Both the position numbers and the translations under genes were made by a program. A model generated the notes under the pieces. That model was not told the DNA's origin. It saw only the letters and a list, made by a program, of their open reading frames with translations, and ran no database searches. Of a stretch of DNA of 64,000 nt, positions 22,431 to 64,000 are shown one piece after another. Location: assembly GCA_004431415.1 (NCBI GenBank), contig QPMI01000139.1, forward strand, positions 1 through 64,000. Direction: 5' to 3'. Each line of letters begins with the position of its first letter. Position 1 is the first letter of the stretch. This DNA is from Cyanophora paradoxa CCMP329. Lineage: Eukaryota > Plantae > Glaucophyta.

Positions 22431-22564
22431 CGCTAGCCCGCCCCCGCGCGCACCCGCCCCGCCCCCCCACGCCCCCGTCCCGTCTCCAAGCGCGCGGCAC
22501 GCTCGATTAGAAGAGAGAGGTTGGGGTCGGGGTGCGGGGGTGCGGGGCGGGGGCGGGGGCGGGC

Positions 22565-24291: not shown

Positions 24292-24712
24292 CGGTCCCGT
24301 CGCGCGTTCCGCCCAGCGCTGCACTGCACGGTGAGCGGGGGCGAGCTCGGCGGCGGCGGCGCGAATCCCGAACCTCGAGCCGAGCGAGAGAGAGCCGAAC
24401 CACCGCGCAGCCCGATCCGCGCGCCGGCCAGCATCGCGGACACAATACGGCTGTGGTCGGCGGTCAAGCCCTCGTGCAAACCTCCTTATCTCAGCGAAGC
24501 CGTAAGACGGTGTACGCAGCGTGGCGAAGTGCGGTCTCGGGAAGCCGCGCTCAAAGGGGGTACGCAGATCCCCCTTCGTTCAAACCCGAACGTCGCTACC
24601 GTTCGATCCCTTCGGCCAGCAGCCGCGCCACGCCCCTACGCGAGCTGCCAAAGCTGGAAGTTCTCGCAACAAGCGTTCTGGAGCTGGCAGCCAGCAGATA
24701 CTAGTTGGCGCG

Positions 24713-25942
24713 ATGGAGGGTCTAGCAGGAACTTCGGCAGCCTCGGCCTCAGCGTGCCAGCCTCAGCATCAGCATTCGTGCGATGTTCTGGCTCGCCTGC
24801 GCTCATTGCCGCCCATGCCTCCTCAGCCAAACTCTGTCGCAATGGCGCGACTGGTCGAGCCCGCCGCGAGGGCCTTCGTCAGCGACGTAGTTCGACGGCG
24901 CTGCAGTGCTCTTAAGCTCTGCGATGGAGAAGACTGCGAACTGGACCTGGCTGTCATCGGAAGGAGTTCTCCGGGTCTGGCGGGGTGGTCGTACCTGAAC
25001 TGCTATCTGAAGCGTACCATTCGGTGCCCCGTTCACAGTACAAAGCTGCTTCACTTCAGGTAAGCGCTCGCGCGCTTTTCCGCTGCTCCGGACCCCCGTG
25101 ACGCGAACCGTCGCTAACTTGCATCTCACCAGCCTGCAAGCTTCTGGCGAAGTCATCCTTAAGTGCACGGAGTCGACCCGGTGCGCATGGCAGAGCTTTG
25201 CGAATTCCGCACCGGCCCCGCTGACCACGTCGCGGCCTCGCGCAGCCGCCACTGCCTGTTCGCCGATCGGTTCAACGAGGACGAGGTGCTCCTCGCGAGC
25301 ATCCTCTTCGAGTTCGGGTCCCTGGAGGACGTCACGCTCGAGACTCTGCTCGGCGAGGAGGCCGCCGACTCGGTCGCCTCCGTCTCCCCGGCGCCGCTGC
25401 CGGCCGAGGCTGGGCGGGGCGCGGCGGGGGCGCGCGGGGCCTTCGCCTGCCTGGAGAGCGACGACGCGGTGTCGATCTGCTCGTCGTCCCTCGCCCCGAC
25501 GCCCCTCTCGACCACCTCGAGCTGCGTCTCCGCCTTTGACTTCCCCACCCCGCGCGGGGACGCCCCCTCGCCCTCCTCCCCCCTCCAGCGCACCGCCTCC
25601 GCCGCCGCCTGCGCCGCGCTCCCGCCGGCCTCTCCCGCGCTCTCCATCCCCTTGGACGAGCTTCTCTGCCCCACGCCGGACGTCTCCGGCCGCCCCTCCA
25701 AGCGCCTGCGCTCGGGGGAGACCCCCGCGCCGGCCTCCGCCTCGCTCTCGCGCCACCTCGAGCTCTCCCCGCCCTCCCCCTTCGTCACCGCGCCCCTCTT
25801 CGATCGAGGTGCCTCGCACCCGCGCGCCCCCTCGCCCCACCCTCCTCCCCGCTCACGCCCGCCGCCCCGCAGAGGCCGACCCTTTCACAGTTCTCCCCTT
25901 CGAGCTATCCTTCTGAAGCCTGCCCGACATACGCAATTTTGA
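24713..25942 (+). CDS. Hypothetical protein (Cys/His-containing N-part, Ser/Pro-rich tail)
   Basis: Coding-like frames 24713-25059 and 25163-25942 joined by a GTAAGC..CAG intron. No family recognised. Confidence 0.5.
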
Positions 25943-26458
25943 CATCTCTCTCTCTCTTGCTTTGTGCCCTAGTGAACCTCGCCTTGCGCTCTTCGCCTGT
26001 CCAAACCTCGCCTCGCGCTCTTCACAAATGGGGGCAAAGGGACAAAGGGGGTCGTCTAGGCTGGCGTAGCTCCTCGGGGTGTATTAACAGCATGCTAATG
26101 TCTGATTCTTCGGGTGGCCAGTGGCCACACCCGCATCAGTTTTCAAATCGCGGCAGTAACGTTCAGCTCCGTTTTTAACCGCCGCACCGATCGAGGTCGG
26201 AGTACTACGGTACAGCATTCGGCCTGGCGCCGTGCTGTCAAGCACGCAACATTAAGCTTGTTTGTATTCAGCTGCACATGTTGCTAGCATGAGGTAGCCG
26301 TGGGATCGTCCAGCGCGTGGAGCCAGCGCCAGGCAAGCGCGTGGTCGCCAGCGCCAGCGCGTGCGCTTGCGCCCCTTTGTGAGGGAGAACTGCCGCAGTG
26401 CCGCAGTGCGATGAAGGACAAATGGGAGTGAGCTCCCAGAGCGATGCCCTGACGGGCA

Positions 26459-29400
26459 TGAATGCAAGCGAGCCTCGGAGCCTCCCGCTCCAAACGTGCC
26501 GCTGAGCGCTGCTAAGCGGTGCTAAGCGGTGCACGTACGCGGTTGCTTCGCTGCGACGCTCGCATGCATGCGTGCGCCTGACTGCAGCAGCGCAGGTGCC
26601 GCACTGCTGGTCTGCCGGTGACACGGCCATAACCGTCGTCCGATCCACCATGAAGCAGCTCGCGCTCGCGCCGGGCAGCGTTCTGCAGTTCACGCCCCTG
26701 ACTTGGGAGGAGCTCGCGTGTTACATGGAGCACCGGCGGCTGCCGCCCAGCGCCGACAGGGCGCCCCCGCGCATGTACTTCCGCATCCCCCGCGGAGCCT
26801 GCCCCCTCGTGGAGGCGACCCTGATGCGCAACGGCTTCCGGATGCTCGCGCCCGGCGAGCGGGGCAGCGCGGACCTCACGTGGAGCGGCGGCGGCGCGCG
26901 CTCGACGCAGATCTCCGCCCTCGCCCCGTGAGCGAATCCCCGCGGGGCGGGGCGAGGCGGGAGCCTCGGAGGGGCCTGAGGCGCGGGCGGGGGCAGGAGC
27001 GCGAAGTGGAACCACTTCCCGCGGAGCAGCGAGCTGACGCGGAAGGACCGGCTGTACACGAACTTCGCGCGCATGCGGGAGCTCTTCGGCTCCCGCCACT
27101 TCGACTTCGTGCCCCTCACCTTTATCCTGCCCCACGACGCCCCGCTCCTCGCCGCCGAGCACTCCCGCCTCCGCTTCCACGCCCGCCCCGCCCCGCCCCG
27201 CCCCGCTCCCCGCACGCCCCGGAACCAACCGCCCGTCCGCGTAGGAGGGAGCCCGGGCCATCTGGATCTGCAAGCCCAGCAACCTCTCCCGCGGCCGCGG
27301 CGGTGTGCCGTCTCGCAGGCCCCGCGCAGCCCCGCCGGCTGACGCCGGGGGCAGTGTTCCTGGCGGCGTCCCCCGCGGAGATCCGAACCGACGTCGCCTG
27401 CGTCGTCCAGAGGCGCGCGCCCCCTCTCCCCGCCTCGCCCCCCGTCGCCCCCGAGGCCGCACCGCAGGTACATCCACAGGCCCCTCCTCGTCGACGGCCG
27501 CAAGTTCGGTGCCCCTCCCGCCGGCACGCCGCGCCCCCGCGAGCCGCCCTCACGCGCCGCGCCGCAGACCTCCGGATCTACGTGGTGCGATGCGAGGCGC
27601 CCGCGGGGGCCTCGAACACGCGAAGGCGCGAGCGTGCGGGGCGGGCGCAGGCGGTGACGTCGTTCGACCCGCTGCGGGCGTACCTCTACGGCGAGGGCCT
27701 CGCCCGCTTCGCCTCCGAGCCCTTCGACCTCTCCAACCCCTCCAACCCCTTCGTGCCGCCCCCGAGCCCGCCCCGCCGCCCCCCGGGGCCCGCCGGGGCC
27801 GACGCGGGAGGGGCGGCAGGTGCACCTGACGAACTACTCGATCAACAAGCGGCGGGCGGCCTCGCGGGCCTCCGCCGGGGGCGCCTGCGCCGAGGACCCC
27901 GAGGCCTGGCTCTACGGCGACGTCGAGCCCGAGCCCGACGCCCCCGAGGAGGGCGCGGAGGGCGGCGAGGGGCCCGCCCCGCCCCCGCACCCCGAGCCCG
28001 CCGACGCCGAGCGGCGGCCCGACGCGCCCCCGCCGGTGCGCGCGCGCGGGGCCGGCGGGGGACGGGGTGCGGGGCGGCTGCGACGGGGCAGCAGATCAAG
28101 ACGCGACTGACGGCGCTGCTGAGGCGGCTGGAGGCGGGCGGGGTGGACGTGCAGGGGCCGGAGGGCCTGATGGCGCGCATCCGGGCCCTCGTCGTGAAGA
28201 CGCTGCTGAGCGGGGAGAGCGCGATCCATGCCGCCTGCAAGATGTCCGTCCCCTTCCGCGGCAACTGCTTCGAGGCGCGCCACGCATCCCCGCCCCGCCG
28301 CCCCGCCGGCAGCGCGCCGCGGGCTGAGGGGGCGCGGGGGCAGCTCTTCGGGTTCGACGTGCTCATCGACGAGACCCTGCGCCCCTGGCTCCTCGAGGCC
28401 CGCCCTCCCCGCCCCTGCCCGCCAGTCCCGGGGCGGCCCGTGACGGGGCGCGGGGCGGGGTGCAGGTGAACCTGAGCCCGAGCCTGGCGTGCGACGCCCC
28501 CGTGGACCTCGCGGTGAAGGGCCCCATGCTCGCCGACCTCTTTACCCTCGTCGGCTTCCGGCCCCCCGCCTCCGTCTCCGCACCGCCCTCCCCCCACCGC
28601 CACCGCCCCGCGTGCGCCCCGCCCCTCGCCACAGCGCCCCGGCGCCCCGGCGCTCTCCCGCCGCCGAGCTTGGCACGCAGGCCGCCGCAGGCCCCGCCGC
28701 GCTCGCCCCAGGGCGGGCCGCAGGTGGGCGCCCGGCGGACGGTGAGCGCGGGCGGGGGCACGGCGGGGGCCCTCTCGAGGGAGCAGGGGTGGGACGGGAG
28801 GCCGGGGCCGGCGGGGGCGCGCGGGGCGGGGGCGGGGGCAACGGGGACGGCCCCGCGAGCCTCGCCGCCCTCTACTCGCCCTTCCGCGGCGACGGCGGCC
28901 TCTTCCGCGGCGACCGCGCCCTCGGCCGCTCCGAGGGCGCCCCCTACAGCCCCCGCGTGTACCCCCCGCCGCCTGGGGGTGCGCGCGCCGGCGCTGCGCT
29001 CTGGGCGTGGCGGGGGCGGTGAGGGCGGGGCGCAGGCAGCTGGCGCCGGAGCAGCGGCAGGTGCTGCGGGAGACGGAGGACGAGCTCGCCCGCGCCGGCG
29101 CCTGGAGCCGCGTCTTCCCCCGGCCCCTCCCAGCCGGCCCCGCCCCGGCCCCTCCCGCCCGCACTCCCCGCCGGGGCGCCCCGGGGCGCCGGGCGGGGCG
29201 TGCGGGGGGAGCGGAGCCTTCCCGAGGGGCGCGACCTGCTCGGTGCGCGCGCGCGGCCCCGCTCCCCTCCCGCGCATGCTCGAGGCGACGGGGCGCAGGG
29301 CTCTACGAGCGCATGTTCGAGGGCCCGCGGCCCAGCGTCGCGCTCCTCGCCCTCCAGTACCGCCACCAGCAGGCCCTCGCCGCCCCCGCCCTCGCCCCGG

Positions 29401-29670
29401 GCCCCCGCCCGCACCCCTTCCCAGGCCCCGCCGGCGACCCCGCCCCGCGCCCGCCCAGCATCGCGCGCCCGCCCTCCCCGATCCGCTCCCTCCCGCTCCC
29501 TCCTCGCCGCCCCGGGCCGCACGGTCGCCTCCCCTCGACGCCGCCGCCGCTGCGGCCGGCGAGGTGCGCGCCGCCTCGGCGCGGCCCGTGCGGCGGGCAC
29601 GCTGACGGCCGGCAGCGACTTTGCGGCGCGGGCGCGGGCGCTCCAGGAGAGCCTCCGCCCCAGCGCGTGA
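26459..29670 (+). CDS. Tubulin polyglutamylase, TTLL4/5-like; start approximate
   Basis: [90 protein letters not shown]. Confidence 0.92.
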
Positions 29671-29800
29671 TCCCCCCTCGCCCCCCGCGCAGCGCTCTGC
29701 TCTTTCTCTCCGAGGCTCGCTTTTTTCGCTTTTTTTTTCGAATGTGGGATGATGAAGCGGAGGGGGCCGGCGGGGAGGGGGCGGGGCCGGGGCCGGGGCG

Positions 29801-31674
29801 TCAGCGGGAGGGGAAGGCGGCGTCGAGGGCGGCCTCGGCCTCCTCCCCCGCCCGCTCCAGCACCCGCACCTCCACCCGCCCGCCCCGCCCCCACCGCCCC
29901 GCCAGCCCCGCCACCCGGCCCGCCCCGCCCCCATCCCGCCCCGCGGCCGGGGCCGGGCCCCGCGGGGGCGGCGGGGCGTGAAGGGCCGGGGTGAGGGTGA
30001 GGCGGGCGGCGCGGGGGGCGAGGGCGAGGATGCGGAGGAGGGAGGCGGGGCGGAGGGCGAAGGCGGGGCCCCGGGCGGCGCTGCACTCGGCGCACTCCCG
30101 CACGACGAGCTCGCGCAGGGCGGGGGCCGGCCCCGCCGCCGCCCCCGCCGCGAGCGCCGACGCGGCGTCCTCTACGGCGCACTCCGAGGTGACGAGGAGG
30201 GCGAGGGCCGGCAGCCGCCCCAGAGAGAGCAGCGCGCCGGCCCCGCACCGCGCCAGCCCCGCCGCCCGCAGGCAGGGGGCCCGGGGAGGGCCTCGGGCCC
30301 GGCGGCGGGGCGGGCTGGGGCTCGAGGGCCGCGCAGGGGGCCGGGGCGAGGGCGAGGAGGCGGAGGCGGGGCAGGGCAGAGAGGGCCGCCGCCGCGCACT
30401 CCTCCGCAGCGTCCCCGTCCTGCGCCCCCGCGCCCGCTCGCCGCGCGAGGCCTGCCGGCGCGCGGGGGGCTGGGCGCATGCGCACACGGGGAGCATGAGG
30501 TGCGTGAGGCCGGGGCAGAGGCTGCGGGGGTGAGATGGCGGGCAGGGCAGCGCGCGCGGGGTGGGGCGGGCGTGCCGGGCGAGGGCGCGGAGGGTCGGGG
30601 GTGGACGGGGGTGCAGGAGGCGGCGTGGAGCTCGGCGAGGCGCGGGGCGAGGGGCGCCACGGCCGCCACCAGCGCGTCCAGCCCCGCCGCCTCCGAGACC
30701 CACAGCGCCCGCAGCGGCAGGGGCGCGGGGGCGCCCCCGGGGGCCTCGAGGAGGGAGCGGGCCCAGCGCCAGCGGACGAGGAGGCAGCTCTCCACCTTGA
30801 GGAGCTCCAGGGCGGGGCAGCCGCGCAGCAGCGCCTCCACACCCTCGTCCGTCACCCGGTTGCTGCCCCCGCACCCCTCAACCCCCGCGGCGAGGCGGAG
30901 CGCCGGCTGGGACCGGCGGCAAGGGGGCGCGCCAGAGGCGGAGGCGGGCGTCGCGAAGGCGGCGGTGGGCGGAGGCGGCGCGCAGGCAGTCGTCCGTGGC
31001 CGGCCAGCGCTCGAGGTGCAGCGCCTCCAGCAGCGCCGCCCCCGCCAGCAGCGCCCGCAGCTCCTCCGAGGCCCGCCCCTCCAGGCGCGCCCCGCCCGTG
31101 TAGGCGAGGCGGAGGCGGCGCAGGCGAGGCGCGAGCGCCTGCATGCCGAGGAGCGTGTCCCGGCCCGCCGGCACAGCGAGCGCGACCGAGCTCAGGCACG
31201 GGAGCGCCGCCCCGAGGCCCCGCATGAGCGCAGCGTCCACCTGTCGAGCCCGCCCGTCGGCGGCGCGCGGCACGCTCGCGGCGCGGCCGAGCTTAGGCCC
31301 ACCATCTCGGGGACGGCGCGCAGGTCGAGGTGCGCGAGGAGCGCGAAGCGCCGCTGGCAGAGGAGGCGCTCCAGCGAGAAGCTCGGCCCGGCCGCGGAGA
31401 GGAACGGCACCGCGCAGTTGCCCGAGCCGATTCCTCCCACGCGTTCGCCTCCCTTGAGCCGCGGAACGACCAGCTCGGTCCAGAAGCGCGCGTCCTGCGG
31501 GGCGGGCGGTTCACGTGCGCTGCGAACCGCGGCTGGAGCGCCGGCGCCGGCACGCACGTCGACGATAGCGCGCCAGCGCTTGCAGACGCGCGCCAGGAGC
31601 GCGACTGAGGTGACGTTCGCGTCCCGCACGCGCGTCAGGATGAGGCTCAGGAGCGCGTCGTCCAGGTCCTCCAT
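29801..31674 (-). CDS. F-box/LRR-repeat protein
   Basis: N-terminal F-box MEDLDDALLSLIL..LARVCKRWRAIV; LRR units such as VTDEGVEALLRGCPALELLKVESC. Confidence 0.75.
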
Positions 31675-49133: not shown

Positions 49134-52100
49134 CTCACTCTGTGATGACGCGGAGGAGGGTGTGGCGGGAGGGGGAGTTCTTTCGGGGATCGCCGGGCGG
49201 GGCCGGGGCCGCGTCGACGAGGAGGGGCGGCTCCTGCGACTGCGGCTCCTGCAGCGCCTCCGCGTCGTGCCCGCAGAGCGTGTGCCGCCGCCGCCGCGCG
49301 AGGAGGCCCGGCGACTCCGCCCCGCTCCCCGCCGGCGAGGGCGTCTGGTCGGCGGGGTGGGCGCGGCGGGGCGTGCGGGGAGCGCGCGGGGGCGGTCGAG
49401 GGAGTCGAGGAAGGCGCGGGCGTCGTCCCGCGAGGCCGGCGCGCAGAAGGGCCCCGGCCCCGCAGCACGCACGCCGGCGAGGCCCGGCCGACCCCGACCC
49501 GGCGGCGGCGGCCCCGCGCAGCGCCGGCGAGCCCGGAAGCGGGCCCGAAGAGGGGCGCCTCGTCGCGGGGCCGAGGGGCGCGGCGAGAGGGAGCGGTTGC
49601 GGGGGAGGGCCGGGGCGGGGCGAGGCGGCCGCGCTCCTGGGCGAGGCGGCCGACGACGTCGATGCGGTGCCGCAGCTGTCCAGTCGCGACTCCAGCAGCA
49701 GCTCCGCCGCCGTCGGGCTCGTCCCGCCCCGCGGCGCCGCCCCAGCGGCGCCGGCGCCGCCAGGTGCGTGTGCGCGGGCTGGGCACGTGCTCGGGGGCGG
49801 TGCGGGCGGAGCCCGGGGCGGAGGAGGGGAGATGGAGAGGGCGGGGTGGTGGCGGGGGAGGCGGCGGGGCTGGGGGCGGGGCGGTGCGGGGCGAGGGAGT
49901 GGGGCGCGAGGAGGCCGGCGAGGGCGAGGGCGGGGGCGAGCCGCGGCGCGCCGCCTCCTCGAGCTCCCGCTCCCGCTCCTCCTCGGGGGTCGGGCTCCCC
50001 TCCGAGGCCACCGAGATCACCGGCGCCGGCCCCGCCCCGCGCCCCGAGGGCGGCGAGAGGGCGCCCTGGGCCCCGGAAGAGGGCGAGGGGGTGCCGGGGG
50101 GCGGCTGGGCGGCGAGGAGGGCGGGGGGCACGGGGGAGGAGGCGCGGAGGGCGTCGGCGCCGGCGCGCTCCTTCATCTCGATGATCTCGACCCAGCGGCC
50201 GCGGTTCTCGAGGAGCTGGCGGTAGCAGCGGCGGACCTCCGGGAGGAAGTTTTCGAGGGCCGTGAACAGCGGCGCCGCCACGAAGTCGATGAAGTTGAGC
50301 GTCACCCGCGCCTCGCACGCCGTCCGCCGGTCCACTGCGCCCCCCGCTCAGGCGCGCGCGCGCCGGGGGGAGGGGGGGCGGGGGGCGGGGGGCGGGCGGG
50401 GACGGGGCGCACTGAAGGGGGTGACGGGGAGGCCGCGCCGCCGCTCCTCGTCGCCCTGCTCGAAGAACTCGTCCATGACGAGGAGGCTCCAGCGCTTCGA
50501 GAGGCTCCACGGCTTGATCGGGTTCGAGATGTCCGCCGCGTGCAGCAGCGTGTTGATCAGCGCCCGCCGGTGCTTCTTGTTCGCCCCGTCGAAGCTGGCT
50601 CTGCCCATCAGCGGCGTCCGCCGCGCCGCCGTGCGGGCGGGCGGGGCGCACCCGGCGTGGGTGATCTCCGTGAAGCTCGCCACCTCGTCGAGGTGCTGCG
50701 CCATGTCCGTCGCCCTGCGCGCGCGCCAGCGGCCCCCGACCCGCGTCGGCCCCCGCGGTGCGGGGCGGGCGGGGCGGGGCGGGGCGGGGCGGACAGGATG
50801 GCGCCGATGACGATGGAGCGGATCTCCTTGGCGGCCTCCTCCTCCACGTCCTCCAGGAAGTTGCACCGCTCGTCTGCGCCCCCCGCCCCCGCTCGCCCGC
50901 CGCCCCGCCCCGCCCCGCCCCGCCTGCGCGCACCGCGGAGGGTGACGAAGATCTCGGCGGCGTGCATGTTCTCCAGAACGCTCTGCGCCCTCGTCGGTCC
51001 CGGCGGCGGAGGCGGGGGCGCGGGGGGCGGCCTGGGGGGCCGGGGCGGGGCACCTGGTCGTTGTAGCGGATGGCGAGCTCGTGGCCCGTTGCGACGAGGA
51101 AGCCGTTGCTGAGGCCCGGGTGGCCCACCTGGCGGGGCGCCTCGGAGGGGGCGGGGGGGCGGGGCGGAGGGGCGGGGCGGGGGCGGACGTCGTGGCCGAT
51201 GGCGGCGAGGTAGAGGGCGAGGAGCTCGCGCTCGGAGAGGACCTCGGCGACGCGGCGGCAGCCGGCGAAGACCGCCACCGTCCGCAGCACGTCGAACGCG
51301 TGCCGGAAGCAGTGGTACGGGTTGTGGTGGTACTTGCGAGCGAGGACGCGGAGGAAGCGGCGGAGGCGGCGGCGGCGGAGCTTCAGGCGGCGGACGAGGT
51401 CCCGGGCCTCGAAGAGGAGCACGGCGAGCTCCACCAGCTCCTCCTCCGTCCGCCCGAACACGTCGAAGCTCCACTCGTTCAGCCCCTCCGCCTCCGCCTT
51501 CTCCTCCGCCGCCGCGCACCCCAGGCCCTCTTCCTCCGGCCCCTCCTCCTCGCTGCCGGCCGTCAGCGCGCCGCCTCCGGGCGGTGGCGGGGGCGGGGCG
51601 GGGGCGGGCGCGCTCGGAGGAGTGTATGATGTCGCGGTCGGCCTGGGCGCGGGGCGACGTGTTGAGCGGCGAGCGGTGCGGCGACGCCGGCCGGCTCCGC
51701 AGGATCGGCTCGCAGCCGCCGCTGCCCGTCTTTCCCAGCGCGGTCGCTAGCAGAGCCTCCCGCCTCCCGAATATCCTGCCCCGCCCCCCCGTCAGTGGTG
51801 CTCTCGAGGGGGCTCGCACGCCAGGGGCAGCGCACAGATCTGCAGAGTGCGCAGCCGCCACGTCAGGAGCGGGGCAGCGCGGAGCGGGGAGCTTCGACGG
51901 CGGCGGCGCACCGGCGATGGAGCTCCCGCGACGGCGCATGCGGGCGGGGACGGACGCGTTCGGGTCCAGCACAGAGATGAGAAAAGCCGCCGTGTCGGGG
52001 TCGTCCGCAGTGACGCTCTGGCGCGCGCACGCCCGGGGTCAGTGGGGTCACGCTTTAGAAAGCGCGCAGAAAAGCTGACGCGCTAGCGCGCGCGGGGGGG

Positions 52101-53196
52101 TGGGGGGGGTGGGGGGGGGGGGGTGGGGGGGGGTGGGGGGGGGAAGAGAAGAGAAAGGGGGGGACGTCGGGGGGCAGGGGGCGGCGGGGAGGGTCACCTT
52201 CATCAGAGCGTCGAGGAGTGCGGGGCCGAGACGGGTCTCGCTGGACGCCCGAGCCGCGGCAGCGCACAGCTCTTCAAGGAGCTTAATCCTCCCGTGCACG
52301 AACTGCAGCTCCCTGCGCTCCCTCCTCTCAAAAAAAGGAACGAAACGCGCAATAACCAAAAGAGACAGGATGGGCCGGGCGCTGCCGCACCGCATGAGGA
52401 GGGGCCCGTCGCTCTTCTGGAGGCATCCTTGCTTGCGCCTGAGCTCTCTCCTCCGCGCGGCAGTCTCTATCTTTTCCTCCAGCTCCTCGTCCGCGAAGGG
52501 GACGCCAAGGACGTCGTCGCTTCCCGCGTCCAGCAAAGACAGCGCGGCTTGCGCTCCGCTAGCGTTAATCGAGTAGCGCAGAGTTGGGGACGTAGAGGCC
52601 GCTGAGCCGGTGCACCGTCTGAACTCGTCCGGAGCACGGCGAGGATACAGATGAAGGCGGCGGAGTCCGCAGAACGGAGCGCTCGAATGTGCGACAGAGC
52701 ATCGCTTATCGATATCTCGTCATCCTCGTTAGGGAGGAGCACGTAGACGAAGATTGCCTGGAAGCTTTTCCCCTCCTTCAGCAGTTCGCGTAGGGAAAGG
52801 ATATCCTTCGACCAGGAAACTGTGCACATAGGCGGTGAGCCGGGGCCTCACAGAAGGGAAGGGCAGGCTAGAGGAAGGCTGAAGGGCAGCAACGAGACAC
52901 GGAGAAGGGTGCCATGCCGAGGCCAGACACCTCGGGGCCGGGGCTCGGGGTTCTAGCTAGATTTCTGCGGTGTAGCTAACGTTCAGAGCGGGGTCGTTGA
53001 TCCGCTCACCGTTCTGGCTGCGAAAGCTCGGCAGGCGAAGCAGCGACTCCAGTAACCCATAAGAACAGGCAACCGCGACCGTCAAACGGTCAGAGGACGA
53101 AGCTTCGTTTACGTCTGCAGCTCGCGGAGCTGCTGCGGCCGCCGCGATATCGGGCTGGGCGAGGGGGTTCCCGGGCCCGGGGGCCGATGGGCTCAT
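49134..53196 (-). CDS. Class I cyclic-nucleotide phosphodiesterase with N-terminal degenerate receiver domain (RegA-like); ends approximate
   Basis: NPYHCFRHAFDV, HDVGHPGLSN, ENMH, ATDM, LHAADISNP, EFFEQGDEE. Receiver-like FQAIFVYVLLP..LDAGSDDVLGVPFADEEL. Confidence 0.88.
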
Positions 53197-53280
53197 CGCC
53201 TCGCCAGGGCCGGGGACCTCGGGCCGTTTTTCAAGCAGCTAGGTGCTTGCTGGGCGGCGGCAGTAGTGCAGTAGGTCGGT

Positions 53281-53890
53281 GTGGAGCTTCGTCCGCTCGG
53301 AGCTTTCGCCGCAGCGTATGGGTACCACTTGATCGGGCTTGCTGCGGATTACGTATACGCAAGACCTAGCAGCGGCGGCGCTACCTGCGAGGCGAGAAGC
53401 TGCGTACGACGCAGCAGTAGGGCCCTCTGGAGGAAGGCGCGCGATCCCCTTCGGTCCGCGTCCTGCACAGCTATCGCATTAGCGCCGGCACTCCCGCACA
53501 CTAGCGCCGGCTCTCTACAGCTGGTCCAGACGGATGTCGTCGACGCCGAGGTACGCTTCGCGCCTCTCATCGCCGCGTGCGTGACGTGGCGCATGTCAGG
53601 TGGCGGGCGCGCTCTATCGTCGGGAATACGAATAGGAAGCAGAGCACCAAGCCCGCCCAGCCTTTGCCTTGGGCGGAGCGCCTGCTGGATTCTGCCGACG
53701 AGGACTCGTTGGCGCTCAGCCGCAGGAGCTCCCATCTCATCAGCGCGGACGAGGCCACCAACGAGGAGTCCATCGTTCTGGATACGCAGCGCACTGCGCG
53801 ACCACCGTCGACGCTTGTTCGTGGACACTCGGTACGCGCGCACGGTGCGTTGCGCGCCGCTGCAACTGCGTGTTGATCGCCGCACGCGCG
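53281..53890 (+). CDS. Possible small spliced hypothetical gene
   Basis: Host-like intron (GAG|GTACGC..CAG, 53551-53599) and coding-like segments. No clean model could be built. Confidence 0.25.
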
Positions 53891-54398
53891 TCTAGGCAAG
53901 ACCTCGGATCGCGCTACCAGTATCTGGCGGCATCACACCTTCGTCTTGGGTGCCGATGCCTCCTTCGATTTCGCCCCGAGATGAGAGGAGAGAGCAAGCA
54001 GACTGGGCGCTCTGGCAAAGCCGAAGTAGGAGGGACTCACCTTCGGGCCCCGGGTTCCCCTGCGTGCACATGCCTACAGCACCGCGATCGAGGCCCGCGA
54101 CAGCGCCGCCCGTGCGTCTCCGATTGTATTTCCTCACTTTCTGAGGCCGCCGGGCGATGGAAGGCTAATTTATCGAGGGATCGGCGCAGGTTTCGCGCGC
54201 GTCGATTCCCGTCATCGAGATAAGACTGCTTGCGGACCCAGAGTGGCCTAGGGCGCAACCGCACACGCGCTTTCCCCCCGCGGCCCGCACAGCACGCGAT
54301 CTGCCAACCCACGAGAGATTGTTTGGCGCTTTAGCACCAATGACGAGAGAGATCTAGCTACCTAATGTCACTGAGCTAGCAGCTAGCAGGCAGGCTCT

Positions 54399-56282
54399 CT
54401 AGTCGGTGAACGTAATGGGGCGGGGGCCGCTGGAGGAGGGGGGGCTTGCGGGCCTAGAGGAGGGCGTCTGCGCGGCGAAGTCGCTGAAGAGGGTGGCGCC
54501 GAGGGCGCGGACCACGGAGGGCGGGGCGGAGATGAGGGCGGGCCGCTCCGCCTCCTCGTGGCAGGTGGCCTCGCCGAAGGCGGGGGGCGGCTGCGAGAAG
54601 GCGACGACGGCGTGCGGCTCGTGCGTCGGCGTCTGCGTGCCCCGCGAGACCCGCTCCACGCTCCGCACGGGCGTCGAGGGCCCGTCCGGCGTGTACGGCA
54701 CCGGAGCGCTCGTCGGGAGGGACGCCGCCACGTGCTGCGACGGGTCCGACGCCGCCGTCGGCGAGAGCGGCGGCGGTGGCGGCGAGACCGCCACGTCGCC
54801 GCCTGCCGCGGCCGCCGGCGGCGTGCTGGGCCTGGACCCCGAGCCGCCGTGGCCGTGTGCGTGGCCGTGCGCGTGGCCGTGCCCTGCGCGCCGCTCGGGA
54901 CGGCAGGCGGGGGGCGCGCCGGCGGGGCGCACCGTGGTGCCCGTGGCCGTGCCCGTGCCCGTGGTGCCCGTGCCCTGCGAGCCGCTCCGGTCGCCGCGAG
55001 GTGCACTGCGCTGCGACGGGACGCACCGTGGTGGTGGCCGTGCGTGGCGGGGTGCTGCGGGGGGGAGTGCGAGCGCGGCGGGGGCGGGTGCAGGAGCTTG
55101 TGGGCCTCCTTCAGCACGTAGTCCCACTGGAAGGCCGGGCCCGGGTCGTTCTTCTCCGCCTGGATGTGGTAGTGGCCCAGCACGCCCTTGAACGCCGCGA
55201 GCTCGGCGTCGGGAAGCTTCCGCGGGAGCGGCTTCCCGCTCGCGGCGTCGCGCGGGCACTCTAGCCGGATCTGAGGCAGGATCGCCGAGAGCGCCGCCGT
55301 GAGCCGGATGAGCGCGTTGTACTGCGCGCAGGGCCCGGCGGTGAGATGCGGCGCAATCGCCGGGAAAATGCAGCGACGGCGAGGACCTGCTGCTGCGTGT
55401 AATCGTACTGCCGGTACTTGCGCCCCTGCAGTTCGTCCACGATCATGTGCGGTCGCACGGGATGCCCGATGAAGTTCTTCGTCTTGATGCCCCCGCCCCG
55501 CGCCTCGGGCGGCACCACGATCCGCGTCCGGCTTCCCTCGCGCTTGTACCAGCGATCGAACTTGTCCTTCTCGTCCTCTAAGTACGCTGACGAAAACGAA
55601 GAGGGCAGATTAGTGGGTAGTCTGTAAAGCGACAGCAGGTGAGGGCTGTGGGCGCACCTCCGACGTTGGCAATCTCGATTCCGACGGATCGATCGTTGGA
55701 GATGGTAGCATGCCAGCCGCGCTCCTTCAGATCTAACGTCTGATAGATGGTGCCATCAAGATCCAATAGGAAGTGGCAGCTCAACCCTCGCCGGTCCTGC
55801 AGGACCTGCAGGCGAATTGGATCGGCCGCGAGCAGGCAGCGAGCGGCGGAGACCGCGGGGAACCTCGAAGCAGCGCTGGCTGAGGCCACAAGCGTCGCAG
55901 TGAATGACGAACTGATCCACGACGCGCCGCAGCTGCTCCAAGGTCCAGCCCCCGCCGCGAACCTGTTCGACCTCGGCGGCCGAAAGCTTGGGGCTGCGGC
56001 GCATGCCGTAACGGTTCGGAGTTTTAAGCTCCCGCGATATACTGTCCCACTCCGAGCTCTCCAGCGGCCCGAAGCTGAGATGAGGGCGCTCAGGGCGCTT
56101 TCGAGCGCGCGAGATGCGGTCCACTGGGGGTCGCACCGGCGCTCCACGCGATATGCATCGTAGCCGCCCGGATCCATGAAGGTGTAGACGCGCACGCCCC
56201 CGCCCAAGCGGAAGAGCTGGCCGCACACAACGATCTCATCGCCGTGCCTCGGCACCGGCTGCCCAGGACGATCGTCCGCCAT
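54399..56282 (-). CDS. N-acetylmuramoyl-L-alanine amidase (Amidase_2) with low-complexity His/Pro-rich tail
   Basis: QFVIHCD, LSCHFLLDLDGTIYQTLDLKERGWHATISNDRSVGIEIAN, QYNALIRL, VLGHYHIQAEKNDPGPAFQW. Short host-type introns. Confidence 0.9.
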
Positions 56283-56843
56283 CTAGTCCCGCACTCGCAC
56301 GCGGACTCGGCACACACCCCGGCGACTCCGACTTAGTAATCTCAGGGTCTGTACCCAGGCATGCGCAATTTGATCCAGAATAAAGACCCTTCCGAAGTTC
56401 GCCTGAGCCCCGAGAGGCTGATTCCAGTCCACCGATTCCACGCGGCCGCGCCGAGACACTGTGACAGGAGCCAGTGCTCGCCTAACTGCTGCGCTATGGC
56501 AACCATGCAGGCCACACGTTTTCATGATCACCTCTTCTGCATATGCATACGCATGCGCGACAGGAACGGTGGCGCAGTGGATCCGAATCAGCGCGCCCGC
56601 CCTTCTCTCCCTGCCCGATCGTTATCCTCGCCGGCCCAGGACTGCCGACCCTGACGCCCTCGGCTCCCACGCAGCTGGGCACGCTCAAAGGACACGGGGA
56701 ATTGTGCTGAACATCAAGCGCGAGGGCTCTCAGCAGCCACGTCAACGGCTGAGCAGTGCAAACGGCACCCTGCTCATGGGTATCAGTTCCGCAAACACGC
56801 CTAAACGCGATCGGCGCACGTTTTCTTCAGAGAAGAATTGAGC

Positions 56844-57750
56844 TTAGAAGCCCTGGAAGGCCTTCTTCGCCTGGCCGCCAGTCGAGCCCGCCTTCGGGAT
56901 GACCTTCAGGACATTGAAGCGGACGGTCTTCGACAGGGGCCGGCACTGGCCGACGATCACGGTGTCACCGGGGCTGCGAAAGACATAAAGGTTACTTCCT
57001 TTCGACGGTCATCCAGTAGGGCAAGGGCGGGTCGCGGGCTAGACGGAGCAGGTAGGAGTGCGCGGCAGGCGAAACGCAGAGCATGCGGGCGCACTTGACG
57101 ATGAACGCCGGAGAGCAGTGCGCGGGGAAGTTCTTGTGGCGCTTCTCATAACGGTTGTACTTCGGGATGAAGTGCATGTAGTCGCGGCGCACGACCAGGG
57201 TGCGCTTCATCTTGGTCGACTGCACGACGCCCTGGAGGATACGGCCGCGGATGCTGACATTGCCAGTGAACGGGCACTTCTTGTCGATGTAAGAGCCTGC
57301 GCACACAAGCCCGCAGGTCAGCGGAAGCTTCTTAGGTCGGCGATCGATGGCTCTGTTGCGCTGGTAAGACGGCATCGCTGCTCGGGCGAGCGGAGGGGCG
57401 AGCCGCATAGAAGAGCTTCGACCGCAAACTAGACTGGAGCTGCACCCGATGGCGCCTTCTGTTCGCCGGCGGCTACCTCGCCCGCTGCTGGCTCGAGCGC
57501 GAGCGGCCGCCGGCTCCCGCAGACGCGTCCGCTCCGCGATCGCGCCGTCCGGTCTAGCTTCTAAGCTACTGCGAAGCGCACCCTCGATCGCCTCGCGCGG
57601 AGTCTTGAAGCCGAGGCCGATGTTGCGGTAGTAGCGCGGGACCTTGCCGCTCGGGCCGCCCTTCTTGGCCAGAAGGCGCTTGGAGCCAATGAAGATGGCG
57701 TCCTGCTTCTGGAAGGCCCTCTCGACCTGCTGGACTTCGGCCGTCGACAT
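56844..57750 (-). CDS. RPS11: 40S ribosomal protein S11 (uS17), 3 coding exons
   Basis: [70 protein letters not shown]. Confidence 0.98.
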
Positions 57751-57930
57751 TTTCCCCTGCGCAGCCGCAAGCGGCGCCAAAAGGTGCACAATGAGCACAA
57801 AATCTCGAGTCCCAAAGCGGGAAGCGCCTCTGGTGGCTATATCGGCTGGCGTTCTTTGGCGGACGGACCTGTGTTACTGCCGGGTCCCGACCGCGTACGG
57901 GTACCGCTGTTCAAAAAAACTCGAACTTCG

Positions 57931-58795
57931 CATCGAACTACATCAAGCTCGGGCGCGCGCTTCCCCAGCGCAGGGAGGAGGCACTAGCTGCGCGCCTTCC
58001 CCGGCCTCCTTGCTCGCTCGCCCCCGCCCCGCAGCAACTCGTTCGACGAGCGTGTTGTTTTCCATGAGCTTTGCATGAGGGCGGCAAGAGGTGCGCTAAT
58101 TAGCTTTAGTTAGCGATGCTGTGTGCTAAACTGGCTGTCTCAACGTTCCCGCAGCTGGCGCCGGCCTTGCCTGACCGCTCGACCGATGATCAACAGCTCG
58201 CCGGTACTCGCCTACCTTCCAAGCGTGAGCTCTAGCTCTCGTGAGCATGAACTTAGCATTGAACTACATCAAGCTCGGGCGCGCGCTTCCCCACCACAGG
58301 GAGGAGGCACTAGCTGCGCGCCTTCGAATTCCCCCGGGGCATCGCGTCTTGCCTGCTCCCGGCCTCCCTGCTCGCTCGCCCCCGCCCGGCAGCAACTCGT
58401 CCGACGAGCGTGTTGTTCTCCATGAGCTTTGCATGAAAGCGGCAAGAGGTGCGCTAATTAGCTTTAGTTAGCGATGCTGTGTGCTAAACTGGCTGTCTCA
58501 ACGTTCCCGCAGCTGGCGCCGGCCTTGCCTGACCGCTCGACCGATGACTAACAGCTCGCCGGTACTCGCCTACCTTCCAAGCGTGAGCTCTAGCTCTCGT
58601 GAGCATGAACTTAGCATTGAATTACATCAAGCTCGGGCGCGCACTTCCCCACCACAGGGAGGAGGCACTAGCTGCGCGCCTTCGAATTCCCCCGGGGCAT
58701 CGCGTCTTGCCTGCTCCCGGCCTCCCTGCTCGCTCGCCCCCGCCCGGCAGCAACTCGTCCGACGAGCTTATAGCTTATTGTTCTCCATGAGCTTT
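57931..58795. repeat. Tandem repeat, ~358-bp unit, ~2.4 copies
   Basis: GAACTACATCAAGCTCGGGCGCGC.. at ~57935, 58261 and 58619. Duplicate ORFs at 58123/58481 give a period of 358. Confidence 0.9.
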
Positions 58796-59315
58796 AGGAG
58801 TGGGCGCACCATTGGGCGCTCGCGCACGGCGCGGGCAATGTCCTGCAGATCTCTCGGAGCTAGCGCTGGAGGCGAACAAGCGGGAACATGAGCTCGAGGA
58901 GCGGGAGGCGAAGACACGCAAGCTGGCCCAGTGGCGCCGTACGTGAGCGGGAGGTGAAGACACGCAAGCTGGCGCCGTACGCGTCGCCTGCCTTCCTAGC
59001 GTTAGCTCTAGGGCCTAGCGCTAGCTCCAGGGCCGATATCATTATATAATTAATTTAAGTTTACTGTACATATGCATGTGCATGTAACTGTTTTACGCAG
59101 CCCATGTGTACGCAGCTCTCCGATGGTCACCGCGCGCGGCCGTCGTCTTGCAGTTGTCTTGTCGACTTCGATATCATGAAGCTTATATAGGAGGGCCATC
59201 AATGGGCCAAACGCGAAAAGGCAACTCCGAGAGCTCGAGACTCGGAAGTGACGCTTGGATTGCGGAGGTTCTTATAACCGCCGCAACAGCTGTGGGGGTA
59301 CCCCCTCCGAGGCTG

Positions 59316-59425
59316 GCGATCGCGGCGATCGCGACCCGATCGCGACCCTGGTGATCGCGACTTTCTCCCGATCGCGACCCTTTTCGATCGCGATTTCGAG
59401 ATCGGGGGCATTTCTGCGATCGCGA
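59316..59425. repeat. Cluster of seven GATCGCG motifs
   Basis: Copies at ~59318, 59327, 59338, 59353, 59370, 59386 and 59418. Confidence 0.9.
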
Positions 59426-59552
59426 GAAAGGAAAAATCGGAAAAGGCCGAAAAGTGCGTTTTTCACGCGTGAAATCGACCGAAAACGAGGGTTCGAATCC
59501 CGGGCCCGGATTTGGACTTGGGCAAAATCTCGGACTGAAATGGGAGAAAAAT

Positions 59553-59634
59553 GGGACCTGGGACTTGGGACTTGGGACTTGGGACTTGGGACTTGGGACT
59601 TGGGAAGAGTTGGAATCAGAGTCTGGACTCAAAA
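59553..59634 (+). repeat. (GGGACTT)n module 1
   Basis: GGGACCT + 6 x GGGACTT + GGGAAGAGTT tail. Confidence 0.95.
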
Positions 59635-59660
59635 CGGGGAAATTTTCGGAGGGGAGAAAA

Positions 59661-60131
59661 ATGTCAGGCAATCTCTATTACGATTTCCCCTTTGAGTTGC
59701 ATATGGCATTCGAGAGGCTGCGCGAGTTCTGGCGTTGGCACCTCACAGGACATGACATTCCCGACATAACACCAGAGCCCAACACACAGGGCGTGCTTGA
59801 AGTCATCCGTCAATATCCGCGTCGATTCAATGAATGGATCGAGTTCCACGCAACGAACCGTTTCCAGAGTCTCCCCGAGGCCATACGCGAAAATTTCGTG
59901 AGGCTGGTGGGACCAGGCTACGACAACCCTAACAATCATAGACCACGCCCAGCTGGCGTGACGCGCGAAGCTCGAGAAGACCGTAGACTTTTCCGCAGGG
60001 AATTGAGAGAGGATAGACGGAGGCTTTCAATGGGGCTCCCGCAGATTGTGAGGGGGTACAGCCCGGATTACGAGACTTACCAAGAATTGTACGGCTTCGA
60101 AAATCCCTTTGAGAGGGTACTACCAGGGTGA
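59661..60131 (+). CDS. Hypothetical protein, 156 aa (element-borne)
   Basis: Intronless ORF MSGNLYYDFPFEL.. with AAAAATG start context and a normal globular composition. Confidence 0.65.
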   Translation: MSGNLYYDFPFELHMAFERLREFWRWHLTGHDIPDITPEPNTQGVLEVIRQYPRRFNEWIEFHATNRFQSLPEAIRENFVRLVGPGYDNPNNHRPRPAGVTREAREDRRLFRRELREDRRRLSMGLPQIVRGYSPDYETYQELYGFENPFERVLPG

Positions 60132-60469
60132 GGGGCCAGGGGGGGCCCCTGAGGGTGTACCCCCCATCCGAGACTCGACCTTCGGCGGACGCACTCGGGC
60201 AATTTCCGTCAGGCCGGCTCCTTTTTCTGTCTTCGGTCCAACGCTAAATTTGGCTTTTTCAGGCCAGTTGGCAACGTTTTCCGTTGCGAACTAGCCCAGG
60301 AAAAAATTCGCCCACAAAACCGCGGTCCGCCGCCATTTTGCCTCACTCTTGAAACGGGTTCGCCGCCTTCTCTCAGCCCAAGGAAACCCTGCCTCTCCGA
60401 ATTTTCACAAGTCCGCCCTCACAGTCACCTCACGTTTTGCCTTTGCTGATTTCTTTTCCCTTTGCGCAG

Positions 60470-61536
60470 ATGTCGATTCCCGCTGAGCTTGCCGAGGACT
60501 TCGCCTTTGTCCAAGCAACGTGGGCTAACTCCGGTGGCACTCAAGGGGCTACCCCTGAGATGGAGCAGCGCGCCGACGCTCTGGGGTACATCTACAATTA
60601 TGCCATCTTACGCGCCACTGGCCCCGAAGTGCAACTTCTCCCCAAGTCCGCCTTCACGTCCAAGGCCAAGAAATCCAAGTCCAAGCAACCCAAGCCCGAG
60701 CCCCCGTCGACGTGCCCCCGTCCCCGGCTGGGTCAAGACCGCCAACGGCTGGGGCGACCCCAAGCTTTTCGCCGAGTCTGCTGCCGAGACGCTCGCCTGG
60801 GCCTACCCCCTCAAGTCTTCACGAATTACCCCCTCCGTCATCGTCGTCATCTGCCCCTCAGCCCGTCGCCGAGCCCGCCCCCGAGCCCGCCGATGACGCC
60901 AAGTCCGAGGCCTCTGACGTCGAGTCTGACATCAACGACTTCATCGACTTTGACGTGCCGATTCCATACGACTCTGAGTCGTCTTCTGACTCTGAAGGCG
61001 ACAACGAAAACCCGACTCGCAAGCGCCGCATTATCAAGACCAAGTCAATCGTCAAGAAGAAGTTCATGGAGACTACGTCATTCACCGACAACTCCGAGCG
61101 CGTCAAGGACCCCGCCAAGGCACACGAGAAGGACTTGAAGCTCGGCGCCGGCATTGCCCGTTCTCGCGTGACGTCACACTACAGCGAGCGCCTGACTCAG
61201 CACGTCAAGACCATTGAGAAGCGCGTCCTCTGCAACGAGCTCCGCAAGGAGTTGGAGCGCAAGCGGCGCCACGAGCGCCTTGTCCAGTACCAGATCAACA
61301 AGGCGCGGATCGCCGAGCGCAAGCAGAAGGAGGCGGCCGAGCTCAAGGCGCGCATCGAGGCTCAGCAGCAGCGCGAGGCAGAGGCGGCAGCGGCCTTGGC
61401 GGCGCAGCGCGAGCGCGAGCGGCAGGACTTGGTGCAGGCAGCGCAGTCCCTTCCCCGCATTCCCCTTAAGTCGGCGCCCGAGGGCCTCATTGAGTTGGTT
61501 TCCGATGACGATGACTCTGACTTTGAGATGCTGTAA
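60470..61536 (+). CDS. Hypothetical protein with acidic tract, basic NLS-like segment and coiled coil (two apparent frameshifts)
   Basis: MSIPAELAEDFAF.. (frame 60437) continues into DDAKSEASDVESD..RKRRIIK..ELRKELERKRR..DDDDSDFEML* (frame 60712). Confidence 0.65.
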
Positions 61537-61607
61537 ATAGTATTGCGTCATTCCATTGTACATACTTGTAAAAATTGGCCGACTATTCAGTTACGACTTG
61601 GCGCGAT

Positions 61608-61725
61608 CCTGGGACTTGGGACTTGGACTTGGGACTTGGGACTTGGGACTTGGGACTTGGGAAGAGTTAGACTCAGGGTCTGGGCCCAGAATCTCTCTGG
61701 ATCTGAGAGTTTGCCGCGCCAAGTC
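61608..61725 (+). repeat. (GGGACTT)n module 2
   Basis: CCT + 7 units + GGGAAGAGTTAGACTCAGGGTCTGGGCCCAGA..CAAGTC. Confidence 0.95.
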
Positions 61726-61951
61726 CCTAACCACCGGGCAGACATGTAGAGGGGTACGGAAATCTGCATATGACGTTTCTGGTGACATTCCAGGTGAGAT
61801 TTCAAGCGAGGTAGAGTCTGAACTGGTGTACGACTTGTAGCATGATACTGGACATGAAAGCTCACGAGAGTATGCAACCGAAAACGGATGTGAAGAGGGG
61901 TAGGAGTTTTCGTGTGAGATGTCGAGAGAAGGAGGGTACGAGATGGGATAC

Positions 61952-62021
61952 GAGTAAAAAGACTACGAGTAAAAAAGACTACGAGTAAAAAAGAGTATGA
62001 GGAGTGGTAGGAGTAAAAAAG
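61952..62021 (+). repeat. GAGTAAAAAAGACTAC-type short tandem repeat
   Basis: Three tandem copies plus one spaced GAGTAAAAAAG. Confidence 0.85.
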
Positions 62022-62040
62022 TCGGTAGAAAAACTCACCT

Positions 62041-62176
62041 GACTTGTCTGACAAATTTCTGATCCTGGAGAAAGTCTGGGCCGGGACCTGGGTTTCAACT
62101 CTTCCCAAGTCCCAAGTCCCAAGTCCAAGTCCCAAGTCCCAAGTCCCAAGTCCCAAGTCCAAGTCCAAGTCCCAGG
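62041..62176 (-). repeat. (GGGACTT)n module 3, inverted relative to modules 1 and 2
   Basis: About 10 AAGTCC(C) units preceded by AACTCTTCCC and the reverse complement of the conserved tail. Confidence 0.95.
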
Positions 62177-62197
62177 TTTTTCTGAACCTAGGGCAAA

Positions 62198-62514
62198 ATG
62201 GCCCTGCTCCGGTGCACCGACTCGCAAGACGTCGCCTACAACGTCCTGGTCAACTCGGACGTACCCCGAGTGCCTTGGAGTTTCCCTGGAGAGTGGACAG
62301 GGACAGGGTGAGCAAGACGTTTGGAGGGCGCAAGCACTACCTCTCCCAGCTGATCCTCGGGAAGTCGCCACGTGGACGCTACGTGGAACACATCAACGGC
62401 AACCCGCTGGACTACAGGAGGGAGAACCTGCGCTGGGCATCAATGTCGGAGATTCGCAAGAAGAGGAGGGGTACGCCAATTTACAGGAGAAGAGCGAGGA
62501 GATTCGGGAGATGA
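62198..62514 (+). CDS. Small phage-type HNH endonuclease-like protein (one frameshift near 62270)
   Basis: YLSQLILG..YVEHINGNPLDYRRENLRWAS. ATG in GCAAAATG context. Confidence 0.75.
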
Positions 62515-62550
62515 TGGAGGCGACACAGGTGCTAATGCAGCTTAGCCAGT

Positions 62551-63363
62551 CTAGACGCTAGTGGTGTGAATCTTGGTGTCGTACTCGCGACCGACCGTTT
62601 CCCAGGCCACGTAAACTTCGGCTCCGGCGCCTGGCGCTGTCGAGTTGGTAGTCGCAGTCGTGTAGTCCGCCTCTGCCTCAATTAGTTCGGCCATGAGGGT
62701 AGAGCCCACGACCATTCCAGAGGTAGGCATTCCGGCGATGTTGTTGTACAATTTGAAAGTGAATTTCGTGAAGAGGAGCCGGGGCCAGACCTGGGTACGG
62801 GGATTCGAGGCGCCGTATGAATAATCGGTACCCGAGGCGCCGCCCGTGGTGGCATTCGTCATCATCTCCTTTGCGGTCATCTTCCAGAGGTTGTACATCT
62901 CAAAGGGAACGGCCTGCGTGGTCTTGTGTGTGGCATCGATGAGGGCGCCATCTAAATGCGTTTTGATGTTCGGATTCGCACCATTCCCGAATTTGCGAGT
63001 GAGGGCGGTGTTAGCGGTGAACTTGAGTTCGAGCACGCGAATGGCGGGCCGATCAGGCACAGAGGGCTCTATCTTTTTCAGGAGGCCCGAGAGCCAGAGC
63101 GCCTCCGCCTCATCCGCGCTCACGCCCGAGTCGATGTCAAAGTACACGTACACGGAGCAGGAGGCGGGATTCTCGAAATCGTTGGAGGTGACGCGCAACA
63201 TGACGGGATTCTGGACCCTCACGGTGAGCGGGGTGGCGTAGTTTCCGTCCCACTCCACCTTGTCCGTCCCTGCGTTGGCCACGTTCCCAGCGTTGCCGTA
63301 GAAATCGGGGACGATCGAGCCGGCAGACACGGTCTTCACGATGGTGGCCGAGGTGGTCGGCAT
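62551..63363 (-). CDS. Hypothetical 270-aa beta-rich protein, possibly a virion structural protein (paralog A)
   Basis: Intact intronless ORF, Thr/Asn/Gly-rich, GCAAAATG start. Colinear similarity to the upstream ORF. Confidence 0.75.
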   Translation of the reverse strand: MPTTSATIVKTVSAGSIVPDFYGNAGNVANAGTDKVEWDGNYATPLTVRVQNPVMLRVTSNDFENPASCSVYVYFDIDSGVSADEAEALWLSGLLKKIEPSVPDRPAIRVLELKFTANTALTRKFGNGANPNIKTHLDGALIDATHKTTQAVPFEMYNLWKMTAKEMMTNATTGGASGTDYSYGASNPRTQVWPRLLFTKFTFKLYNNIAGMPTSGMVVGSTLMAELIEAEADYTTATTNSTAPGAGAEVYVAWETVGREYDTKIHTTSV

Positions 63364-63386
63364 TTTGCGACCTCAAATGAGAAAGA

Positions 63387-64000
63387 TTATCCGTGAAAGA
63401 GGGTGATGTCGCCACCGATGTTCATGACGCGGGCCCCAGGCACAGAGTCAGCGTCGGTGCCGTACGCGTAGGAAATCGAGCACTCACGCAGCTCCGCGCA
63501 GAGGCTGGCGCCCGTGCTGAAGTGGGGCTGGTCGGCGGCGTAGGAGAGGGGGAAGACCTGGAACCTGAAAAAGGTGAAGGGGAAGCGGGGTAGAGTCGAG
63601 CCGCGTGGGTTGCCGCCCGTGTAGAGGGCCCCAGGGTCGCGGGACTTGGATTGAATTTCGTGAAGAGCACGTCGCCCTTGAGCGTACCCCTCATCTGGTA
63701 AGTTCCCGTACCCGGAAGATTCGAAGAACTGGGGTACCGGTTCACGGTGGGGCCGTACCCCGTCTCCCTGAACTTGACCTCGAGACAGCGCAAGACGTTG
63801 GCAGTGGCCGTGGCAGGTGCCACCTTTTTCACGAGTCCTGATTCGTGCAGCAGCTCGATAACCTCTGCGCTGAGGCTCAGAGGGTCGAAGAAGAGCTGGT
63901 AGGAATAAATCTTGGGCGTGGCGTAGGCGTTCTGAACGACCTGAATCACGACGGGATTCTGCAGAAAGACGTCGACGTAACTGCCGGAGGGTATGCGTGC
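63387..64000 (-). CDS. Paralog B of the 270-aa protein (5' truncated by the window; one frameshift near 63660)
   Basis: LQNPVVIQV..SGLVKKVAP..RCLEVKF, then in the shifted frame YTGGNPRGSTLPRFPFTFFRFQVF..GASLCAELRECSISY..ITLFHG*. Confidence 0.7.
   Translation of the reverse strand, partial: THTLRQLRRRLSAESRRDSGRSERLRHAQDLFLPALLRPSEPQRRGYRAAARIRTREKGGTCHGHCQRLALSRGQVQGDGVRPHREPVPQFFESSGYGNLPDEGYAQGRRALHEIQSKSRDPGALYTGGNPRGSTLPRFPFTFFRFQVFPLSYAADQPHFSTGASLCAELRECSISYAYGTDADSVPGARVMNIGGDITLFHG

Follow-up and report, generated by a model that had tools for sequence, protein, structure and literature searches.

A high-copy integrated element of Cyanophora paradoxa, likely a small endogenous virus, with a tandem pair of predicted T7 gp2.5-type single-stranded DNA-binding proteins

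According to a published estimate, endogenous viruses occupy ~7% of the genome of Cyanophora paradoxa, where they are known chiefly by their capsid genes (Bellas et al. 2023, PMC10120064; statements on this and all other cited works refer to the parts of them that were available). The same survey reports 366 matches to major capsid proteins (MCPs), 272 and 94 of them (our own column count) in two unnamed 'iterative HMM' (hidden Markov model) clusters, and HHpred relates them to nucleocytovirus capsids. Contigs with adinto-like PolB and integrase genes (Starrett et al., PMC8502044) and methylated giant-virus-like insertions (PMC12344493) are described from this alga, and its Polinton-like viruses (PLVs) were used for fibre and tRNA counts (PMC12220804). 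The genome paper counts 11.5% unknown repeats, and virus terms find no match in its available part (PMC6704402). Here we analyse a window of 64,000 nt (positions 1 to 64,000 of contig QPMI01000139.1) and read its right part as the 4.8 kb at the left of an integrated DNA element of high copy number, likely a small endogenous double-jelly-roll virus (Polinton-like to mriyavirus-like in grade) among those previously counted in this genome, whose tandem paralogues are predicted to be proteins that bind single-stranded DNA (SSBs), of the T7 gp2.5 type. We give this reading as a whole a probability of about 0.65. The element is real, high-copy and integrated; that it is viral and was already counted in the literature by its capsid gene is likely. 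Its ends, repeat modules and duplicated SSB-like pair are undescribed: we found no paper on its genes or ends, with the limit that the pictured gene maps of Bellas Dataset S1, the rest of the Bellas table file and bioRxiv supplements lay outside the search and may annotate them.

Integration is seen at the left end, where contigs of three DNA runs (X2, X4 and X5) were aligned to 56900-59500. Contig depth, which is summed over contigs and holds only as an order of magnitude, is 98, 32 and 6.8 in the three runs over the neighbouring host gene, which we take from its translation to be ribosomal protein S11/uS17, and 111, 41 and 6.3 over 58901-59161; from 59162 on (first high-depth bin 59162-59248) it rises to 18,672-30,158, 1,685-6,511 and 93-794. 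Among the 24 of 67 loose ends listed, foreign flanks join at 59179, 59183, 59184 and 59193; they are mostly AT-rich and several terminate in TA repeats. A discrete end at 59184-59190 is thus common to many copies with differing, mostly AT-rich flanks, which shows that a unit was inserted repeatedly, with a bias to AT/TA-rich sites. The left-end sequence is not repeated elsewhere in the window and its terminal 26-mer has no match in the collections searched. The one viral match to the terminal 19-mer was dismissed as chance, the shared stretch being only 20 nt.

The initial annotation, made from the sequence alone, had proposed the left arm of an endogenous virus or of a large DNA transposon, beginning at 59040. 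The evidence supports a virus-like element that is integrated in many copies and has a discrete end, but the boundary was misplaced by ~145 nt: in all three DNA runs single-copy contigs match the window without mismatch from 58813 to 59202-59212, so that 59040-59183 is host DNA. The sharp GC switch reported there is real as a drop but modest (0.652 over 52001-59000 versus 0.572 in the element), and the dip to 0.448 at 59040-59184 belongs to the host flank. As for the expected link of 59040 to RPS11, the single-copy contigs cross 59040, but none of those listed spans the 358-nt tandem repeat that separates the element from the ribosomal protein gene. This repeat (57923-58795, ~2.4 copies, 97% matches) has a depth that fits low copy number. 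Next to it, ~40 nt at 58810-58851 stand at more than 10 times single-copy depth and continue in other copies into a different common sequence; they are probably left over from another repeat family.

The element stretch comprises five genes and three repeat modules (Table 1). Its two tandem paralogues lie 23 nt apart (stop 63387-63389, ATG 63363), as had been noted before, and share 40% identity over 68 aa and ~30% over the full length when an intact copy is used. Paralogue 2 of the window agrees with an intact copy in one frame as far as residue 146 and in a second frame from there on, the switch falling on a four-base run near 63630. Paralogue 1 (270 aa) as query retrieved 14 proteins (12 from EukProt, one each from ENA and Logan); the named relatives are C. 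paradoxa accessions and lie on 35 contigs. Full-length members form three groups, whose identity to the window protein is ~99-100, 84-86 and 65-67%. Among 1.84 billion representatives a profile search matched 9, including an intact 226-aa paralogue 2 and, at 38-42% identity, a relative from Logan, and in three of the four named intact paralogue-2 models paralogue 1 carries the adjacent gene number. Relatives of both paralogues (P0009, P0013 and P0048; 62-66% and 42% identical) occur on ENA and Logan contigs of 1.0-1.9 kb outside the host proteome, so the family is not limited to the C. paradoxa assembly. When 22 full-length proteins are placed in a tree, the paralogues separate with 100/100 support and each side holds a protein from outside the host proteome; the duplication therefore likely predates the expansion in the host. 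Viral contigs, metagenome contigs and prokaryote genomes yielded no locus related to the pair; tblastn against phages gave two matches at E 6-8, PDB sequences gave none, and longer fused gene models that might reveal the next gene were absent among 1485 candidates.

Structure models of the paralogues reach a pLDDT (predicted local distance difference test) of 40 and 66, with a core of 70-90 in the better one. For both, the best-ranked of 48,161 chains are gp2.5/Enc34 SSBs, and oligonucleotide-binding (OB) folds lead both lists. The top matches belong to the family of T7 gp2.5, Enc34 ORF6, DUF2815 and CP312R of African swine fever virus (ASFV), with 116-148 aligned residues at 9-11% identity; ASFV CP312R itself ranks fourth. 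From these models paralogue 1 is predicted to adopt an OB fold closest to T7 gp2.5/Enc34-type SSBs and paralogue 2 a fold of the same type. We hold an OB fold to be quite probable for both; that they work as SSBs we would put at slightly better than even. A parvovirus capsid, first in the Foldseek PDB ranking, was rejected at a TM score of 0.14, and pentons, an initial guess from a motif pattern, were not borne out.

Several results weigh against this reading. HHalign gives the paralogues 0.2% and 0.4% against the Enc34/DUF2815 alignment, with shallow profiles (effective number of sequences 1.5-2.2). Thirteen family members have no Pfam match apart from one at E 0.06, and all seven proteins checked lack the acidic C-terminal tail, with 3-4 acidic residues in the last 25. 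At the left end the single-copy contigs reach only 13-23 nt beyond 59190, short of the bridging rule. Finally, 4.8 kb pass without a virion gene in the Pfam and PHROGs scans.

Comparison with described groups helps to place the element. T7-like SSBs are reported as confined to phages and nucleocytoviruses, and viruses with protein-primed polymerase B (pPolB) as users of unrelated, non-OB SSBs (PMC4889955); a T7 gp2.5-like SSB, PEV_26, is retained in the gamadvirus mriyaviruses (PMC11253617), and a further nucleocytovirus group has one of the gp2.5 type (10.64898/2026.08.29.747986). This distribution favours a helicase-driven or rolling-circle virus over a classical Polinton. Maverick/Polinton and adintovirus-like elements resemble ours in being multi-copy, integrated, repeat-rich at the ends and present in the same host (PMC8502044), whereas the visible part here has no pPolB, rve or protease and its predicted OB-fold SSBs would be atypical for pPolB viruses (PMC4889955). 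With the endogenous PLV-type viruses of C. paradoxa (PMC10120064) it shares host, order of copy number, GC below that of the host, an HNH gene and frameshifts, as well as the PLV trait of discrete multi-copy chromosomal insertion (35 contigs, alternative flanks) with a GC shift; unlike them it has no MCP linked to the present arm, and its ends, target site, repeat modules and SSB-like pair are not described in the available part of that survey. Gamadviridae and other Mriyaviricetes (PMC11253617), like the Zora, VC134 and VC218 groups (10.64898/2026.06.19.733378), are small viruses with capsids like those of nucleocytoplasmic large DNA viruses (NCLDVs); Cyanophora MCPs also match NCLDV capsids by HHpred, though none is linked to the present arm. 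Where Gamadviridae have PEV_26, the element has a diverged tandem SSB-like pair; genes for integration are reportedly missing from mriyaviruses, whereas the element was inserted many times, and the NCLDV-like MCP and ATPase and the HUH, VLTF2/3, RuvC and Mriya48 genes of mriyaviruses are absent from the window. Integrase-bearing groups between PLVs and mriyaviruses have been described, VC102, VC134 and VC218 often with rve or tyrosine recombinase integrases; SSB and glaucophyte terms find no match in the available part of that work (10.64898/2026.06.19.733378). From the T7 gp2.5, Enc34 ORF6, DUF2815 and ASFV CP312R proteins the paralogues also differ in larger insertions and in being two. Six contigs carry published MCP examples and none is among the 35 contigs with the paralogue pair, which is uninformative, as ~0.3 overlaps are expected for an assembly that we take to have ~700 contigs.

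The foremost alternative, in our view unlikely, is a large DNA transposon without a capsid, or a non-autonomous virus derivative that has suffered deletions, spreading in the nucleus with SSB-like and HNH genes that are cargo or help it replicate. The high terminal depth, TA-rich flanks, subterminal repeats and lack of virion genes would all suit it, and the terminal depth ratios surpass the 41 annotated protein entries; gene models, however, undercount copies, the genome holds hundreds of MCP loci, and a virus is favoured by the compact, convergent arrangement of the genes, by HNH_3 and by a type of fold that has been called virus-specific. It is improbable that the element is a small integrated virus whose tandem genes encode virion proteins (two pentons or cement-type beta-sandwiches) instead of SSBs. 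Their size of 226-270 aa and beta-rich character, the missing tail and SSB profile support, and the duplicated pentons reported in Trimcap B PLVs (10.64898/2026.06.19.733378) agree with such proteins, as do Atlas features, a weak lead that points to phage unknowns with a 21% Bbp16 cluster. The first rank of gp2.5/Enc34 SSBs for both models and the core pLDDT of 70-90 in the better one speak against them; no penton or double-jelly-roll chain is among the top 50 structural matches of either model, although that fold may still be there. Still less probable is that the stretch forms one end of a giant endogenous viral element (a nucleocytovirus), partly duplicated across the genome: such elements are reported in C. 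paradoxa (PMC12344493), and gp2.5-like SSBs, including the fourth-ranked CP312R, are typical of nucleocytoviruses, but near-identical copies on 35 contigs and a sharp common end whose depth is tens to hundreds of times that of single-copy DNA, in a ~100 Mb genome, do not fit full giant genomes. A real element joined to this host flank by misassembly of a repeat is very improbable, since in all three DNA runs a single-copy contig runs with no differing letter from 58813 into the first end bases, even though flank contigs overlap the element end by fewer than 31 letters and the unbridged tandem repeat lies on the link to the ribosomal protein gene.

Table 1. Features of the left arm of the element and of the adjoining host flank
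Feature	Position	Strand	Description
Single-copy host flank	58813..59183	.	includes 59040; from contig depth
Element left end	59184..59190	.	TATATA run, target site or first element bases; depth step and foreign-flank junctions
GATCGCG cluster	59316..59424	+	seven motifs (59318-59424); likely bound by protein in the terminal region
Repeat module 1	59552..59634	+	~7.7 copies of a 7-nt G-rich unit and a conserved ~30-nt tail
ORF1	59661..60131	+	156 aa orphan, AAAATG start
ORF2	60470..61536	+	likely one gene, ~350 aa, over three frames (three-frame translation)
Repeat module 2	61608..61697	+	faces module 3; 91% to module 1
Spacer between facing modules	61698..62067	.	370 nt, purine-skewed; 16-nt unit x2.9 at 61949-61994
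Repeat module 3	62068..62177	-	inverted, ~10.7 units; ends 20 nt before HNH start
HNH_3 endonuclease gene	62198..62561	+	spans three frames; 3' end overlaps stop of convergent paralogue 1
Paralogue 1	62551..63363	-	270 aa, intact
Paralogue 2	63387..64000	-	226 aa in intact copies; first 22 codons beyond window; one frame switch

The earlier call of an HNH gene is borne out by Pfam (HNH_3 in frame 62200-62511, E 1.2e-7, 31.7 bits versus a curated cut-off of 24.8) and by the HNH families of PHROGs; this frame has no related locus in the collections searched. It likewise holds that no transposase, polymerase, ATPase or capsid is visible, at least by Pfam and PHROGs in the eight element frames scanned; these frames show no integrase either. 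Of the two supposed orphans (open reading frames, ORFs, 1 and 2), ORF1 has no Pfam or PHROGs family and none of 192 candidates at E <= 0.001, and ORF2, searched in Pfam and PHROGs, has only sub-threshold coiled-coil-type matches. Its predicted product has an acidic stretch, a basic cluster and a C-terminal charged helix. AAAATG begins three of the four element genes that start inside the window, but the host ribosomal protein gene too (site 57748), and the ORF2 ATG directly follows a pyrimidine tract ending in CAG (60420-60470) that resembles an intron acceptor; the donor pattern tried finds no partner in 60130-60440. The genes are also less intact than first described. The four frame switches in ORF2 and the HNH gene, read from the window alone (comparison with an intact copy covers paralogue 2), are close to stretches of 3-5 C or G, and frame breaks are reported to arise often through assembly where viral insertions occur in many copies (Bellas et al. 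2023, PMC10120064). We consider it probable that the frameshifts of the element are assembly errors rather than decay.

The motif GATCGCG occurs seven times in 59185-59550 against a mean of 0.36, and none of 5000 Markov controls reaches seven. The subterminal region carries a repeat with a 32-nt period, and the DNA fold of 59185-59480 has a z of -2.5. The repeat module described earlier is present in three copies, two forward and one inverted, and a G-quadruplex pattern fits all three; modules 2 and 3 are 80% complementary over 88 nt and together with their spacer form a candidate origin or promoter hub. An open frame of 123 codons in the spacer was rejected as low-complexity.

A life cycle may be proposed from these parts. 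An integrase of tyrosine recombinase or rve type, encoded beyond the visible arm, would insert the genome at TA/AT-rich sites and use the subterminal GATCGCG cluster as binding sites. Upon excision or reactivation the two SSB-like proteins would coat unwound DNA in a replication that is probably primase-helicase-driven, as proposed because the SSBs reported for pPolB viruses are of non-OB type. An origin or promoter may be provided by the two facing G-rich modules with their spacer, and the SSB pair could hold the G-rich strands unfolded. The HNH gene may be an accessory or selfish nuclease, and capsid, penton and ATPase genes presumably sit further right. A bolder version, which we think rather unlikely as a whole, is an unnamed family of integrating dwarf giant-virus relatives, specific to glaucophytes and kin and amplified to hundreds of copies at TA-rich sites, in which an anciently duplicated, possibly two-subunit T7-type SSB recognises or unfolds telomere-like G-quadruplex-forming modules of the element.

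In run X17 both introns of the host ribosomal protein gene are spliced and depth is zero over the ORF-free 58205-59500; six runs presumed to be RNA contain 0.25-0.33 of the words of 59000-64000, a measure of word content only. Elsewhere in the window, an intron-containing gene at 55200-55800 (minus strand) has an N-acetylmuramoyl-L-alanine amidase domain (Amidase_2, E 2.7e-12), which is consistent with a peptidoglycan wall around the plastid of the host, or with gene transfer from bacteria. A sharp 1-kb island at 8001-9000, with 47-61% GC within DNA of 80-83% GC and no long open frame of its own, is possibly a small insertion.

To call the element the best candidate for a new system was an overstatement, since this genome is already listed with 366 capsid matches, adinto-like contigs and giant-virus-like insertions. 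Much used as an axenic model, C. paradoxa represents the earliest-branching plastid lineage, and its endogenous viruses could be delimited, typed and tested for reactivation by means of a defined end, the preference for certain target sites and a pair of marker genes. If the prediction is true, a duplicated gp2.5-type SSB in a small integrating virus would bear on the idea that Polinton-like viruses, mriyaviruses and giant viruses form a continuum.
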